46,505 nt of DNA from a virus (taxonomy: Duplodnaviria; Heunggongvirae; Uroviricota; Caudoviricetes): the IMG/VR virus record IMGVR_UViG_2563366802_000006. One strand, written 5' to 3'. A model generated the notes under the pieces. The model did no database searches and was not told where the DNA came from. It saw only the letters and a program-made list of their open reading frames with translations. The translations under genes and the position numbers were made by a program. This document shows positions 6,788 through 21,528 of this stretch, one piece after another (within the stretch, counting starts at the first letter, position 1; every line of letters begins with the position of its first letter).

Positions 6788-7165
6788 TCAGGCGGCTTTG
6801 ATAGTCATATCATCTGAATCAAATATTCCTGATGTATCGATATCGGTAATTCTTATTCCTTCGCTACCATCCATTGGAGGCCATCCTTCCTGACCATTTC
6901 CATCATTCCAGTCGAACTCACACACAACACCATATGCATTTAAGTCGCTTGAAATTGCTATAAGCAGAGCATGTTGCGCCAGCATGATTAATACAGCATT
7001 TAATACAGAGCCGTGTTTATTGAGTCGGTATTCAGAGTCTGACCAGAAATTATTAATCTGGTGAAGTTTTTCCTCTGTCATTACGTCATGGTCGATTTCA
7101 ATTTCTATTGATGCTTTCCAGTCGTAATCAATGGTAAGCGTAAACTGACCGCCGTATGTAGCCAT
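6788..7165 (-). CDS. ea10: Ea10-like protein
   Basis: 125-aa ORF in the position lambda ea10 occupies (next leftward of cIII); similar size. Confidence 0.7.
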   Translation of the reverse strand: MATYGGQFTLTIDYDWKASIEIEIDHDVMTEEKLHQINNFWSDSEYRLNKHGSVLNAVLIMLAQHALLIAISSDLNAYGVVCEFDWNDGNGQEGWPPMDGSEGIRITDIDTSGIFDSDDMTIKAA

Positions 7166-7218
7166 CAGACGAGAATTGGTAACTTAGACGCCCATCTGAT
7201 ATAGACGGACATCTAAGT

Positions 7219-7644
7219 ATGGAATTACAGGACTGGCGAAAAGAACCTCGTAAAAACTATTCGAATGAATTCAAACTTCGTATGGTGGAACTGGCATCAC
7301 AACCTGGAGCTTGTGTTGCACAGATTGCACGTGAAAATGGCGTCAATGATAATGTTATTTTCAAATGGCTCAGGCTCTGGCAGAACGAAGGGCGTGTTTC
7401 GCGGCGTCTTCCGGTAACGACCTCTTCTGACACTGGCGTTGAATTATTACCTGTAGAAATAACGCCGGATGAGCAGAAAGAACCTGTGGCGGCCATTGCG
7501 CCGTCTTTATCCACTTCCACTCAGACCAGAGTCAGTGCCAGTTCCTGCAAGGTGGAATTCCGTCACGGTAACATGACGCTGGAAAATCCATCGCCAGAGC
7601 TGCTCACAGTGTTGATCCGTGAACTGACCGGGAGGGGAAGATGA
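7219..7644 (+). CDS. IS66-family accessory protein TnpA (orf1)
   Basis: 141-aa ORF with HTH-like N-terminus; stop overlaps the next ORF. Confidence 0.8.
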   Translation: MELQDWRKEPRKNYSNEFKLRMVELASQPGACVAQIARENGVNDNVIFKWLRLWQNEGRVSRRLPVTTSSDTGVELLPVEITPDEQKEPVAAIAPSLSTSTQTRVSASSCKVEFRHGNMTLENPSPELLTVLIRELTGRGR

Positions 7645-7991
7645 TCTCACTCCCATCAGGTACCCGTATCTGGCTCGTTGCCGGCGTTACCGATATGCGT
7701 AAATCCTTCAACGGACTGGGAGAACAGGTACAACATGTGCTGAATGATAATCCCTTCTCCGGTCACCTGTTTATCTTCCGTGGCCGACGGGGTGACACCG
7801 TCAAAATTCTTTGGGCTGATGCTGATGGTCTGTGCCTGTTCACCAAACGCCTGGAGGAAGGCCAGTTTATCTGGCCTGCGGTACGTGACGGCAAGGTATC
7901 CATTACCCGCTCGCAACTGGCAATGCTCCTCGATAAGCTGGACTGGCGTCAGCCAAAAACATCCAGCCTTAACGCACTGACAATGTTGTAA
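7641..7991 (+). CDS. IS66-family TnpB (orf2)
   Basis: 116-aa ORF MISLPSGTRIWLVAGVTDMRKSFNGL... typical of IS66 orf2. Confidence 0.85.
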   Translation: MISLPSGTRIWLVAGVTDMRKSFNGLGEQVQHVLNDNPFSGHLFIFRGRRGDTVKILWADADGLCLFTKRLEEGQFIWPAVRDGKVSITRSQLAMLLDKLDWRQPKTSSLNALTML

Positions 7992-8021
7992 AAAACTCCT
8001 GACCGCATTATAAAAACGGTC

Positions 8022-9635
8022 ATGAGTCAGAAATACCTCATTCGCATCGCAGAGCTGGAAAGGTTGCTCTCTGAGCAGGCTGAAGCCCTCCGTCAGAAAG
8101 ACCAGCAACTGAGTCTGGTTGAAGAGACGGAAGCCTTCCTGCGCTCTGCACTGACACGTGCCGAAGAAAAGATCGAAGAAGATGAACGGGAAATAGAACA
8201 TCTGCGGGCTCAGATAGAAAAACTGCGCCGGATGCTGTTCGGTACCCGTTCTGAAAAACTGCGTCGTGAAGTTGAACTGGCTGAGGCTCTGCTGAAACAA
8301 CGTGAACAGGACAGCGATCGTTACAGTGGGCGGGAAGACGATCCTCAGGTTCCCCGCCAGTTGCGACAGTCGCGCCATCGTCGTCCGTTACCGGCACACC
8401 TTCCCCGTGAAATACACCGCCTGGAGCCAGAAGAAAGCTGTTGCCCGGAGTGTGGCGGTGAGCTGGATTATCTGGGGGAAGTCAGCGCTGAACAGCTGGA
8501 ACTGGTGAGCAGTGCCCTGAAAGTGATCCGCACAGAACGGGTAAAAAAAGCCTGTACAAAATGTGACTGTATTGTTGAAGCACCGGCGCCGTCCCGCCCG
8601 ATAGAGCGTGGTATCGCGGGCCCCGGATTACTTGCCCGCGTGTTAACGGGAAAATACTGCGAACATCTGCCACTGTATCGTCAGAGTGAAATCTTTGCCC
8701 GCCAGGGTGTCGAACTGAGCCGGGCCTTACTCTCCAACTGGGTTGACGCGTGCTGCCAGTTAATGACACCGGTGAATGATGCCCTGTACCGTTATGTAAT
8801 GAACACCCGCAAGATTCACACTGATGACACACCGGTAAAGGTACTGGCACCGGGTCAGAAAAAGGCGAAAACAGGGCGTATCTGGACGTATGTCCGGGAT
8901 GATCGCAATGTGGGTTCGTCATCTCCTCCAGCGGTCTGGTTCGCGTACTCGCCGAACCGGCAGGGGAAACACCCGGAGCAACACCTCCGCCCCTTCCGGG
9001 GTATCCTGCAGGCGGATGCGTTCACAGGTTACGACAGGTTGTTCAGTGCAGAACGTGAAGGTGGTGCACTGACAGAAGTTGCGTGCTGGGCCCATGCCCG
9101 GCGAAAAATCCACGATGTATACATCAGCAGCAAAAGTGCGACGGCAGAAGAAGCACTGAAGCGAATCAGTGAACTGTACGCCATCGAGGATGAAATACGG
9201 GGATTACCGGAGTCAGAGCGTCTTGCCGTCAGGCAGCAGCGAAGCAAAGTGTTACTGACGTCGCTGCATGAATGGATGGTGGAGAAGAATGGTACGCTGT
9301 CGAAAAAATCCAGACTGGGCGAAGCGTTCAGCTATGTACTGAATCAGTGGGATGCCCTCTGTTATTACAGTGATGACGGTCTGGCGGAGGCGGATAATAA
9401 TGCTGCGGAAAGAGCGCTTCGTGCAGTCTGTCTCGGAAAGAAAAACTTTATGTTCTTTGGCAGCGATCACGGCGGCGAGCGTGGAGCACTGTTGTACGGG
9501 CTGATCGGCACCTGCCGTCTGAACGGTATCGATCCGGAAGCGTATCTGCGCCATATCCTGAGCGTACTGCCGGAATGGCCTTCCAACCGAGTTGATGAAC
9601 TCCTGCCATGGAACGTAGTACTCACCAATAAATAA
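8022..9635 (+). CDS. IS66-family transposase TnpC (orf3)
   Basis: 537-aa ORF with N-terminal coiled coil, zinc-finger CPECGGEL...CTKC and a DDE-type core. Confidence 0.88.
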   Translation: MSQKYLIRIAELERLLSEQAEALRQKDQQLSLVEETEAFLRSALTRAEEKIEEDEREIEHLRAQIEKLRRMLFGTRSEKLRREVELAEALLKQREQDSDRYSGREDDPQVPRQLRQSRHRRPLPAHLPREIHRLEPEESCCPECGGELDYLGEVSAEQLELVSSALKVIRTERVKKACTKCDCIVEAPAPSRPIERGIAGPGLLARVLTGKYCEHLPLYRQSEIFARQGVELSRALLSNWVDACCQLMTPVNDALYRYVMNTRKIHTDDTPVKVLAPGQKKAKTGRIWTYVRDDRNVGSSSPPAVWFAYSPNRQGKHPEQHLRPFRGILQADAFTGYDRLFSAEREGGALTEVACWAHARRKIHDVYISSKSATAEEALKRISELYAIEDEIRGLPESERLAVRQQRSKVLLTSLHEWMVEKNGTLSKKSRLGEAFSYVLNQWDALCYYSDDGLAEADNNAAERALRAVCLGKKNFMFFGSDHGGERGALLYGLIGTCRLNGIDPEAYLRHILSVLPEWPSNRVDELLPWNVVLTNK

Positions 9636-9714
9636 GCGTCAATACGGTGCTCCGTTGACGCTTACAATCAATGATGTATTTTTTGATGTTTGACATCTAT
9701 TCATATCCTCACAG

Positions 9715-12164: not shown

Positions 12165-12443
12165 ATGCAACTTACAAGTACTCGCAAGAAAGCGAATGCA
12201 ATCACAAGCAACATCCTGAATCGAATTGCTGTACGTGGTCAGCGAAAGGTTGCTGATGCATTAGGGATTAATGAATCGCAAATTTCGCGATGGAAAGACA
12301 GCTTTATCCCAAAGATGGCCATGCTTCTGGCTGTGCTGGAGTGGGGTGTTGAAGACGAGGAATTAGCAAAGCTAGCAAAGAAAGTAGCCATGGTGCTGAC
12401 AAAAGAAAAGCCTCAAGACTGCTGCAACAGTTTTGAGGCCTGA
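12165..12443 (+). CDS. cII: CII-family lysogeny-establishment activator (P22 c1-like)
   Basis: Start chosen at ATG 12165 (MQLTSTRKK...) after an AGGAAA ribosome-binding site; conserved core SQISRWK...IPK.AMLLAVLEWGV as in lambda CII. The ORF-track extension from 12078 spans nutR and is not used. Confidence 0.85.
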   Translation: MQLTSTRKKANAITSNILNRIAVRGQRKVADALGINESQISRWKDSFIPKMAMLLAVLEWGVEDEELAKLAKKVAMVLTKEKPQDCCNSFEA

Positions 12444-17281: not shown

Positions 17282-18364
17282 TTAGAACTGGTAAACCAGA
17301 CCTACAGCAACGATGTCATCAGTATCAATACCAGCTGTTTTGGTAAACTTACTATCGTCAATTAAGTTGATTTTGTAATCAACAAAAGTGGACATGTTTT
17401 TATTAAAGTAGTAAGTAGCACCGACATCGACATACTTGACTAAGTCTCGGTCACCATGAACACCAAGGTCTTTACCTTTTGACTGAAGGTAAGCAACAGA
17501 TGGGCGCAGACCGAAGTCAAACTGATATTGTGCTACTGCTTCAAAGTTTTGTGCTTTGTTTGCAATATGGTTATTACCAAAAACGGTCATATTCTGAGTT
17601 TCAGAATATGTGGTAGCCAGATAGATATTGTTCGCATCATATTTCAGGCCTGCAGCCCATACTTCCGCATTTTTGCCGGAGGCATTGAATTTGCTCTTAC
17701 CATAGGCGACCTGACCGTCAGTGCGATCTGATTTAGCATAGGTTGCACCCACGCCGAATCCTTCATACTCATAAGTAGTGGAGAAACCGAAACCATCACC
17801 ATTGGCTTCAGTTACGTCAGTGCGGTCATTTTTACCCTGATACTGAGCAGCAAAGTTCAGGCCATCGACCAGACCAAAGAAGTCGTTGTTACGATAAGTT
17901 GCAACACCAGTAGTGCGACCAGTCATGAACACATCTGTTTGGGTCCAGGTATCACCACCGAATTCTGGCAGGACGTCAGTCCACGCACCGATGTCGTATG
18001 CTACACCGTAGTTACGGCCGTAATCGATTGAGCCGTAATCACCAAATTTCAGGCCTGCAAATGCAAGACGGGTTTTGTCTTTGGAAGAACCTTGAGATTC
18101 AGCGCGGTTGCCTTTGAATTCATATTCCCACTGACCGAAACCAGTCAGTTGATCGTTGATTTGGGTTTCACCTTTGAAGCCAAGACGGGCATAAGTAGTA
18201 TCACCATCATCTGCATCATTAGAGGAGAAGTAGTGCTTAGCATTAACTTTCCCGTACAGATCCAGCTTGTTACTGTCTTTATTATAAATTTCAGCTGCCT
18301 GAGCAGACATCGCCATCAGTACTGATGCAGCTACAGCAGAAATTGCCACTGTTAATTTTTTCAT
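17282..18364 (-). CDS. nmpC: Outer-membrane porin, OmpC/OmpF/PhoE family (NmpC-like), apparently intact
   Basis: 360-aa ORF with signal peptide [23 protein letters not shown] and C-terminal ...VAVGLVYQF; located between Q and the holin as in DLP12. Confidence 0.93.
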
Positions 18365-18792: not shown

Positions 18793-18826
18793 AAACCCGC
18801 CGTCGAGCGGGTTTTTCCATTTTTTG
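18793..18826 (+). terminator. Rho-independent terminator candidate about 110 bp upstream of the holin gene
   Basis: Hairpin AAACCCGCCGTCGAGCGGGTTT followed by TTCCATTTTTT on the + strand. Confidence 0.5.
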
Positions 18827-18937
18827 AGTCTCGATATTAGCTGATAACCCAATACCTGAGTTATTCACTGACTCCGAGTCTGTTACGTTTCGTAGTATTC
18901 CCTCAATTTACACCCGCTTTGTCTGCGAGGTGGGGTT

Positions 18938-19153
18938 ATGCAATCCATGGATAAGTTAACAACGGGTGTCGCCTATGGCACCTCAGCAGGTAGTGCCGGG
19001 TACTGGTTTTTACAGCTGCTAGATAAAGTCACGCCCTCACAGTGGGCGGCAATTGGAGTGCTGGGTAGCCTGGTATTTGGCCTGCTGACGTACCTGACAA
19101 ACCTTTATTTCAAGATTAAAGAAGACAAGCGTAAGGCTGCACGGGGAGAGTAA
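18938..19153 (+). CDS. essD: Pinholin (phage 21 S21 family) with dual-start motif
   Basis: 71-aa [74 protein letters not shown]; Met1 and Met4 give the antiholin/holin pair. Confidence 0.92.
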
Positions 19154-19157
19154 TTCA

Positions 19158-19502
19158 ATGACTCAAAACTATGAACTGATTGTGAAAGGGATCCGCAATT
19201 TTGAGAATAAAGTTACGGTAACTTTAGCGTTACGGGACAAAAAACGCTTTGACGGTGAAATTTTTGACCTGGACATCTCGCTGGACCGTGTTGAAGGTGC
19301 CGCGCTGGAGTTTTATGAGGCAGCAGCCAGAAGGAGCATCAGACAGGTCTTCCTGGATGTTGCTGCCGGGTTATGTGAAGGGGATGAGCTGTCGCCGGAA
19401 AAGCGCCCCATAATTTTAGAGGCGCAGAATGTGTGGATAACCTACAAAGGAAAGCTACCGGGAAGAATTACTGGTTCTCTGAAGACTCCGCCGAAATGGT
19501 AA
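19158..19502 (+). CDS. Hypothetical protein between holin and endolysin (position of Qin ydfR, DUF1327)
   Basis: 114-aa ORF starting 5 nt after the holin stop; assignment to the YdfR family is by position only. Confidence 0.5.
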   Translation: MTQNYELIVKGIRNFENKVTVTLALRDKKRFDGEIFDLDISLDRVEGAALEFYEAAARRSIRQVFLDVAAGLCEGDELSPEKRPIILEAQNVWITYKGKLPGRITGSLKTPPKW

Positions 19503-19746
19503 TTTCACCAGCATATTTTTCTTCCAGTAATACCGCCAGCCACTTGAAAGAATTTTGTTGTTGCTGGGACCATTTGGGGTTGAGTGATTCAAGCTGGAGC
19601 GATGCCAGTGTTGGTTGCATTTGTTCCTTGGGAATTGAGAATGCCAGATATGAAAATGCGACAGTAAGGGCATTTACATCATCCCGAAGCCTGGAAATGC
19701 AGTCGAGCAACTCCTGTAGAGAAATGGTGCTATTGTCCATAAACAA
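19468..19746 (-). CDS. Hypothetical small protein (92 aa), convergent with the preceding ORF
   Basis: ORF only; fills the gap before the endolysin; no family recognised. Confidence 0.3.
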   Translation of the reverse strand: MFMDNSTISLQELLDCISRLRDDVNALTVAFSYLAFSIPKEQMQPTLASLQLESLNPKWSQQQQNSFKWLAVLLEEKYAGEITISAESSENQ

Positions 19747-19845: not shown

Positions 19846-20379
19846 ATGAACGCAAAAATCAGATACGGCCTGTCGGCTGCCGTTCTGGCACTGATTGCCG
19901 TCGGTGCGCCTGCGCCTGATATTCTCGACCAGTTTCTGGATGAAAAAGAAGGTAACCACACAACGGCATACCGCGATGGTTCCGGCATCTGGACCATCTG
20001 TCGGGGTGCCACGGTGGTGGATGGAAAACCCGTTTTTCCCGGTATGAAACTGTCGAAGGAAAAATGCGACCAGGTTAACGCCATTGAACGGGATAAGGCG
20101 CTGGCATGGGTGGAGCGCAATATTAAAGTGCCACTGACCGAACCACAGAAAGCGGGTATCGCGTCATTTTGTCCCTATAACATTGGCCCCGGTAAGTGTT
20201 TCCCGTCGACGTTTTATAAGCGGCTGAATGCCGGTGATCGTAAAGGTGCATGCGAGGCGATTCGCTGGTGGATAAAAGATGGTGGGCGCGATTGCCGCAT
20301 ACGTTCAAATAACTGCTATGGACAGGTTATTCGTCGTGACCAGGAAAGCGCATTAGCCTGTTGGGGGATAGATCAGTGA
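19846..20379 (+). CDS. SAR endolysin (T4-lysozyme fold, GH24)
   Basis: N-terminal Gly/Ala-rich signal-anchor-release segment ([17 protein letters not shown]) and catalytic E-8-D-5-T triad ([16 protein letters not shown]); the expected partner of a pinholin. Confidence 0.9.
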
Positions 20380-20834
20380 GCAGAGTCGCCGCGATTATTT
20401 ATGCTCTGGTTATCTGCATCATCGTCTGCCTGTCATGGGCTGTTAATCATTACCGTGATAACGCAATCGCCTACAAAGAGCAGCGCGATAACAAGGCCAG
20501 TGAACTGGAGAAGGCGAACGCCACCATCGCTGACATGCGGAAGCGTCAACGTGATGTAGCAGAACTCGACGCAAGATACACAAAGGAGCTTGCTGATGCT
20601 AACGCGACTATCGAAAGTCTCCGTGCTGATGTTTCTGCTGGGCGTAAGCGCCTGCAAGTCGCCGCCACCTGTGCAAAGTCAACGACCGGAGCCAGCGGCA
20701 TGGGCGATGGAGAAAGCCCAAGACTTACAGCAGATGCTGAACTCAATTATTACCGTCTCCGAAGTGGAATCGACAAGATAACCGCGCAGGTTAACTACCT
20801 GCAGGAATACATCAGGACGCAATGCCTGAAATAA
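20376..20834 (+). CDS. Rz: Rz i-spanin
   Basis: GTG start overlapping the endolysin stop ([29 protein letters not shown]...), matching DLP12 RzpD; N-terminal transmembrane segment and coiled coil. Confidence 0.88.
20590..20781 (+). CDS. Rz1: Rz1 o-spanin lipoprotein, embedded in the +1 frame of Rz
   Basis: Signal peptide with lipobox (LLGVSAC) followed by a proline-rich segment ([13 protein letters not shown]); wholly inside Rz. Exact start uncertain. Confidence 0.7.
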
Positions 20835-20891: not shown

Positions 20892-21039
20892 CATCTGAAT
20901 TTCACAGCGCATCTCACGCGCATATTACATCACCCGAGCCTTTCAGAAAGTTGAGCCTGAGAACTGCCGTATATGGTGGCGACCATCTCGGGGCGGCTTT
21001 TCTGTGAGACAGGCTCACTTTCTAAAAGGTAAAGACGCT

Positions 21040-21528
21040 ATGAACCAATTAGAAGAAAAGCTTCAAAGAATGATTTCCTTATACAAGGAAGATAACTGCC
21101 AAAAAGTTCCTGAAAACATCGCAGAGTTAATGGAATTGGCAAGTGAATTTTCTGGCATGCTTAAGTCGTCAGGTGTTCGGTCAGCGTTCTTTGTTGAAAT
21201 GCTGATGCACGGCGGACTTATGGCAACAATGAGACGTGTAATGGAAGACCAGAGAAAAGAACCTCCTCAGGTATACGTTTTGTCATCGAAGAAAACTGGG
21301 CTAACCAAAATTGGGTATTCATCCAACATTCCACAACGCATCAAATCGCTTGGCAACTCTGGACCAGACTGCTTGAAGCTTGAGTGCCTGATCCCTGGTG
21401 GAAGAGAAACTGAAAACATGCTTCATCGCAAATTTGCCGCAAAGAGAAAGCACGGTGAATGGTTCGCCCTGTCCAAGGATGACATTGAGGGATTGAAATC
21501 TGTAGCGATTACTTCTGATGGCTATTAA
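21040..21528 (+). CDS. T5orf172 / GIY-YIG-like domain protein (moron)
   Basis: Start chosen at ATG 21040 (MNQLEEKL...); C-terminal half has the T5orf172-type pattern VYVLSSKKTGLTKIGYSSNIPQRIKSL...HGEWFALS. Confidence 0.6.
   Translation: MNQLEEKLQRMISLYKEDNCQKVPENIAELMELASEFSGMLKSSGVRSAFFVEMLMHGGLMATMRRVMEDQRKEPPQVYVLSSKKTGLTKIGYSSNIPQRIKSLGNSGPDCLKLECLIPGGRETENMLHRKFAAKRKHGEWFALSKDDIEGLKSVAITSDGY

Follow-up and report, generated by a model that had tools for sequence, protein, structure and literature searches.

A rare Lys2-to-Gln allele in the S21/EssD-type pinholin gene of a lambdoid prophage

The S gene of the lambdoid prophage analysed here encodes a protein with the sequence features of an S21/EssD-type class II holin (pinholin), in which the lysine at position 2 is replaced by glutamine. 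This replacement (K2Q) is a real, rare natural point allele that occurs on two S-gene haplotypes. The gene retains its dual-start apparatus, the sole alteration being a residue between the starts. We therefore expect that both the 71-aa and the 68-aa product are still made, and we lean slightly towards the view that the 71-aa product would be a weakened antiholin, with lysis triggering somewhat earlier.

The S gene and its lysis cassette

The window, i.e. the whole stretch of 46,505 nucleotides that was analysed, is a lambdoid prophage whose left end carries an integrase ORF. The lysis cassette and its neighbours comprise the following features.

17282-18364, minus strand: OmpC/NmpC-like porin gene, lysis-cassette neighbour of S
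18938-19153, plus strand: long form of S (71 aa, MQSM...), which occupies the place of the S21, EssD and phage 434 antiholin but has no Lys2
18947-19153, plus strand: short form of S (68 aa, MDKLTT...), the predicted active pinholin; its Met4 is invariant in the family alignment
19158-19502, plus strand: DUF1327/YdfR-family gene between holin and endolysin (Pfam PF07041, E=4e-42)
19468-19746, minus strand: antisense ORF of 90-92 aa between S and R (phrog_2411, E=2e-59)
19846-20379, plus strand: SAR-type endolysin, a 177-aa lysozyme (Pfam PF00959)
20376-20834, plus strand: Rz i-spanin, with a GTG start overlapping the R stop codon (Pfam PF03245, E=1e-40)
20590-20781, plus strand: Rz1 o-spanin lipoprotein, embedded in Rz (Pfam PF06085, E=2e-20)
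21004-21528: GIY-YIG/T5orf172 (MUG113) protein right after Rz/Rz1 (phrog_4284)

In a Pfam profile search the 71-aa S protein matched PF04971 ('Bacteriophage P21 holin S') with E=2e-35 and 121 bits at a cut-off of 26 bits, which bears out the original prediction of an S21-type pinholin. It also matched the PHROG holin families phrog_9876 and phrog_20; an NCBIfam search returned no family for S, the DUF1327 protein or the antisense ORF. For membership in the pinholins we looked for a first transmembrane domain (TMD1) near the N-terminus that is rich in Gly, Ala and Ser and weakly hydrophobic, and TMD1 of S indeed reaches Kyte-Doolittle values of only about 0-0.6 over residues 8-28. TMD2 is strongly hydrophobic (up to 2.1 over residues 36-57) and harbours the motif G40xxxS44xxxG48, and the C-terminal tail is basic with a charge of +3. 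The family profile, the two TMDs and the cassette shared with SAR endolysin and spanin genes all identify 18938-19153, on sequence grounds, as an S21/EssD-type class II holin gene. The endolysin has a hydrophobic, SAR-like N-terminal segment at residues ~8-24 and the catalytic motif E35-x8-D-x5-T, and a SAR endolysin is the partner expected for a pinholin. The start of Rz was chosen according to the 152-aa annotation in sibling prophages.

Several of the neighbouring genes merit a brief description. The porin moron (17282-18364) is located between Q and S in antisense orientation, which means that late transcription has to pass across it. The DUF1327/YdfR gene additionally matches phrog_406 and phrog_2091, to which no function is assigned, and its 3' end is overlapped by the antisense ORF, for which the annotation of sibling prophages gives a hypothetical protein. 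The GIY-YIG/T5orf172 protein is likewise kept in the siblings.

The window S protein agrees with EssD of the K-12 prophage DLP12 and S of phage 434 (OL657227) in 70 of 71 residues. Both of these systems share the order Q, porin and S with the window, as well as an identical leader with two Shine-Dalgarno (SD) boxes and an SD hairpin. They have Lys2, however, where the window S has Gln2. A further difference is located downstream: in DLP12 and phage 434, R follows S directly and encodes a 165-aa RrrD-type endolysin, whereas in the window S is followed by the DUF1327 gene, the antisense ORF and the gene for the 177-aa RrrQ/Stx-type endolysin. With S21 of phage 21, the experimental prototype, the window S shares PF04971, two TMDs, Met1 and Met4, the G40xxxS44xxxG48 motif and the association with a SAR endolysin and Rz/Rz1; S21-like representatives are 86-89% identical to it. 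S21 carries the Lys2 that the literature credits with its antiholin behaviour, and the window S does not.

Dual start and the Lys2-to-Gln change

The allele and the elements of the leader that govern initiation are as follows.

18793-18824, plus strand: putative hairpin resembling a terminator, with a T-run, in the leader of the late operon, from a consensus scan
18913-18934, plus strand: predicted SD-sequestering mRNA hairpin in which CCCGCUUUG pairs with CGAGGUGGG (ViennaRNA)
18927-18931, plus strand: SD box GAGGT for Met1 (71-aa product), annotated in phage 434 (OL657227) as the RBS for the S71 antiholin
18932-18936, plus strand: SD box GGGGT for Met4 (68-aa product), annotated in phage 434 as the RBS for S68
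18941, plus strand: A-to-C change that defines the allele and turns AAA (Lys) into CAA (Gln); codon 2 spans 18941-18943

The putative terminator-like hairpin lies ~120 nt upstream of S and has an 8-pair stem, AAACCCGCCGTCGAGCGGGTTT, with TTCCATTTTT after it.

The S leader in the window is identical to that of phage 434, for which the RBS and CDS annotation of the Center for Phage Technology (CPT, Young lab) lists the S71 antiholin and the S68 'holin class II' as separate CDSs. As in canonical dual-start holins, two in-frame ATG codons (18938 and 18947) are placed a few codons apart, and each has its own ribosome-binding site with a predicted hairpin over the SD region. What is missing is the basic residue between the starts that is found in lambda S and S21, as the extension reads Met-Gln-Ser. 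The MQSM start that had been noticed initially is thus confirmed, with Gln where S21, EssD and phage 434 S have Lys. An alignment with K-12 EssD (P0121), as had been proposed, gave 70 of 71 equal residues, and K2Q is the single one that differs. Over 18895-18999, the A-to-C change at 18941 is the only mismatch to K-12 essD, phage 434 and the isolated phage Chlobot. Its consequence for the protein can be expressed as the side-chain charge ahead of TMD1, which is +1 for MKSMDKLTT and 0 for both MQSMDKLTT and MDKLTT. In line with the claim that the two products would differ in length only, they have equal side-chain charge in this region.

We also considered an effect of the change through mRNA structure. 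With matched boundaries, ViennaRNA gave the same SD unpaired probability (0.03-0.15) for the A and C alleles and a gap in minimum free energy of at most 0.3 kcal/mol. As SD accessibility and overall fold are unchanged, this route was rejected. Both Met codons, both SD boxes and the hairpin are retained, and the 71-aa and 68-aa products are therefore still to be expected.

Distribution of the allele

The Gln2 protein is already public under WP_016245255.1 ('phage lysis protein EssD'), which is an exact match. It is represented in 255 contigs and in 397 collection blocks, compared with 71,366 blocks for the K-12 sequence (~0.5%). A 61-mer centred on the change finds a match in 3,055 of 5,426 complete E. 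coli genomes; two of these ~3,055 genomes carry the C allele exactly, and ~2,900 are one base off. Many assemblies of independent origin, two complete genomes among them, contain the exact protein and the 61-mer. An error of sequencing or assembly in the window therefore has practically no chance of being the explanation and was rejected.

Among viral sequences the C allele was absent from all 45 isolated phage records that carry the sequence and from at least 120 copies in IMG/VR viral contigs, every one of which has AAA. Counting Chlobot together with IMG/VR, the position is A in each of 121 copies. A scan of JGI metagenome contigs, which targeted non-A alleles and left the copies themselves uncounted, gave no contig with any non-A allele. 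In IMG/VR no position of codon 2 varies, not even towards the synonymous AAG, and because even AAG is absent this result reflects the low diversity of the 24-mer and not a constraint on Lys. Chlobot is a mosaic relative of the window with ~97% identity. The idea that K2Q is the lone difference from this phage, as in a laboratory or evolved mutant, was rejected on account of that mosaic divergence.

The bulk of the MQSM loci falls into a single prophage lineage with at least 99.9% identity to the window. Its members are often damaged. In strain 3359, the late leader is interrupted by an ISEc23 element that separates the porin gene from S. ET210 has lost everything past the DUF1327 gene through an IS3 element and a deletion, next to appY/ompT. 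In two other window-type carriers (L126 and L129) the cassette is uninterrupted. The window itself has a complete ISEc23 (IS66 family: tnpA, tnpB and a 537-aa transposase) at 7134-9665 in the early-left (pL) region, at a point that corresponds to Chlobot 12205-12212. In strain 3359 and a further sibling (L130) the element occupies another site, the one between the porin gene and S. The presence of ISEc23 at differing sites suggests that the prophage lineage is decaying.

A second set of CAA sequences, L128 and six similar places, has a different haplotype. Upstream of S it shows a 16-bp insertion and private SNPs; downstream there are private as well as K-12-like SNPs and an RrrD-type cassette. 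The S-R-Rz-terminase region of the L128 prophage is apparently complete. A further 34 fetched loci share this haplotype yet have AAA. As the other members of both haplotypes have AAA, K2Q either arose twice or was moved in a conversion tract of less than 106 bp.

EssD-like E. coli prophage sequence was also encountered in records labelled Nanosynbacter, Bacillota, Veillonella and Segatella, and under the labels Xanthomonas pisi, Geobacteraceae and Alkalicoccobacillus (L136, L140, L144, L147, L152, L161, L187 and L196). These copies in non-E. coli records are almost certainly due to contamination or misbinning.

Inter-start charge in the family and predicted effect on lysis

In an alignment of diverse family representatives, M1 and M4 are invariant and the two residues between them vary. 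Lys or Arg is found between the starts in ~55 of 64 one-per-species loci, even at sequence divergence down to ~65% identity. Across 120 cluster representatives and these 64 loci, the extension mostly takes the forms MKSM, MYRM, MLRM, MHRM, MIRM, MMKM and M[KR]M. The statement that the longer form usually has a basic residue thus holds, the exception being the Stx-type clade. The most divergent members (L183, L185, L186, L189, L190 and L191), with sources such as Raoultella, Trabulsiella, Dryocola and Shimwellia, begin M-R-M-N-N if the reading starts from an ATG that precedes the tblastn match by two codons (about positions 1492-1510 of the loci); they have a two-residue dual start with Arg.

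The S genes of Stx phages have no basic residue between the starts: the extension is MYQM in 933W, MDQM in a cluster of 985 members, and MFQM. They nevertheless keep M1 and M4 and two SD-like boxes. Loci of this type are L135 (933W S at 1492-1707), L161-L163, L166 and L192; in one copy from E. albertii (L166) ATG1 is replaced by ATA. The 933W-type S belongs to the same family as the window S (~79% identity) and is accompanied by the same 177-aa endolysin type. Its uncharged pair Tyr-Gln is fixed across a large clade, whereas the pair Gln-Ser of the window is a rare allele. A literature search for a dual-start test in 933W or Stx-phage S yielded nothing relevant. Either the charge is dispensable for the role of the dual start in this clade or an antiholin is missing there too.

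In the published model of the reference system, the sequence of events is as follows. TMD1 of the 68-aa pinholin exits the membrane and TMD2 assembles small pores, whereupon the membrane depolarises, the SAR endolysin is freed and Rz/Rz1 complete lysis. The 71-aa form is a transient antiholin whose extra Lys slows the exit of TMD1. According to PMC13056207 and PMC9636201, pinholes formed from TMD2 of S21 68 require TMD1 to leave the bilayer, and the extra basic Lys of S21 71 restricts this exit. Secondary literature attributes the inhibition by S21 71 specifically to the extra basic residue and describes a dose effect of charges. The S105/S107 pair of phage lambda follows the same two-start logic, although lambda S is an unrelated class I holin with three TMDs, micron-scale holes and a cytoplasmic endolysin. 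As described in PMC6116005, the longer product S107 is an antiholin owing to two extra N-terminal positive charges, contributed by Lys2 and by Met1 in its deformylated state; lysis comes 5-10 min earlier in a mutant making S105 only.

Gln2 brings the side-chain charge ahead of TMD1 down to 0, the value of the 68-aa form, and a weakened antiholin is predicted for this reason. The 71-aa form would then have weak or no antiholin activity and act largely as extra holin; lysis might occur some minutes earlier, possibly with looser timing, and the phenotype would be modest. We consider this outcome somewhat better than an even bet. Several points speak against it: the Stx-phage clade maintains M1, M4 and two SD-like boxes in spite of lacking a basic residue; the allele is absent from the isolated phages and the IMG/VR viral contigs; most carriers are IS-disrupted or truncated, so there is perhaps no selectable phenotype; the extra charge of lambda S107 stems in part from the deformylated N-terminus (PMC6116005); and a polar three-residue extension might itself slow TMD1 exit somewhat. 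Overall, the original interpretation of altered timing control is only partly supported. It carries less weight because a charge-free extension is not unique, the Stx-phage clade already being without the basic residue, and because most carriers are damaged and timing may not be under selection in them. Among reference pinholins, none was found that combines an MQSM start with demonstrated normal antiholin function.

The strongest competitor, which we regard as possible but doubtful, is that K2Q is a neutral or near-neutral polymorphism drifting in cryptic, often defective prophages at the DLP12 site. Since such prophages are vertically inherited and rarely, if ever, go through a full lytic cycle, lysis timing would not be under selection. 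The disruptions described above (ISEc23 in the late leader of 3359 and L130, IS3 plus deletion in ET210, ISEc23 within the window) fit this scenario, as do the absence of the allele from the isolated phages and IMG/VR and the abundance of point variants, with 1,584 distinct sequences in the 90% cluster of the 71-aa protein. On the other hand, K2Q is also present on the well-diverged L128 haplotype, where the region from S to terminase is apparently complete, and the cassettes of L126 and L129 are uninterrupted. Moreover, neutrality in the prophage does not cancel a biochemical effect on the protein.

Rather unlikely, in our estimation, is a retained antiholin function, in which the three-residue extension or the free N-terminal amine would delay TMD1 exit even without Lys2 and timing would be essentially normal. 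The invariance of M1 and M4 despite variable inter-start residues is in line with this proposal, as is the Stx-type clade with both starts and both boxes but no basic residue, and deformylated Met1, not Lys2, is credited with one of the two additional charges in lambda S107 (PMC6116005). However, secondary literature ties S21 71 inhibition to the basic residue itself, with its dose effect, and the persistence of Lys/Arg in most per-species loci despite divergence down to ~65% identity argues that the charge itself is selected.

An effect at the level of translation is less probable still, but it would be compatible with the other explanations. In E. coli, initiation is favoured by second codons rich in A, and by AAA in particular. 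The change to CAA could thus lower initiation at Met1 and shift the S71:S68 ratio. In two of the three windows folded, ATG1 is predicted to be slightly less accessible with C than with A (0.53 vs 0.66 and 0.48 vs 0.54). Yet SD accessibility and fold are the same for both alleles within the small energy gap given above, and the predicted differences are small.

Finally, we would give a low probability to a broader scenario in which loss of the antiholin charge is recurrent in S21-type pinholins, tolerated or even selected, and the dual start has another role. It is based on K2Q on two EssD haplotypes and on an R3-to-Q exchange fixed in the Stx-phage clade, with starts and SD boxes kept. If it were true, the conserved dual start might set the holin dose via two initiation sites, and natural fast-lysis alleles would segregate in E. 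coli prophages.

Taken together, the K2Q S gene is a minor natural variant of a well-studied system, one conservative exchange away from a thoroughly characterised protein, and a functional consequence is plausible but probably small. Already in RefSeq and mostly residing in damaged prophages, the allele is of value as a small, cheap test case rather than as a discovery. If the prediction of a weakened antiholin holds, the K2Q allele and the S genes of Stx phages would be natural experiments on the share of the antiholin in lysis timing and fitness; in Stx phages, lysis timing bears also on toxin release.
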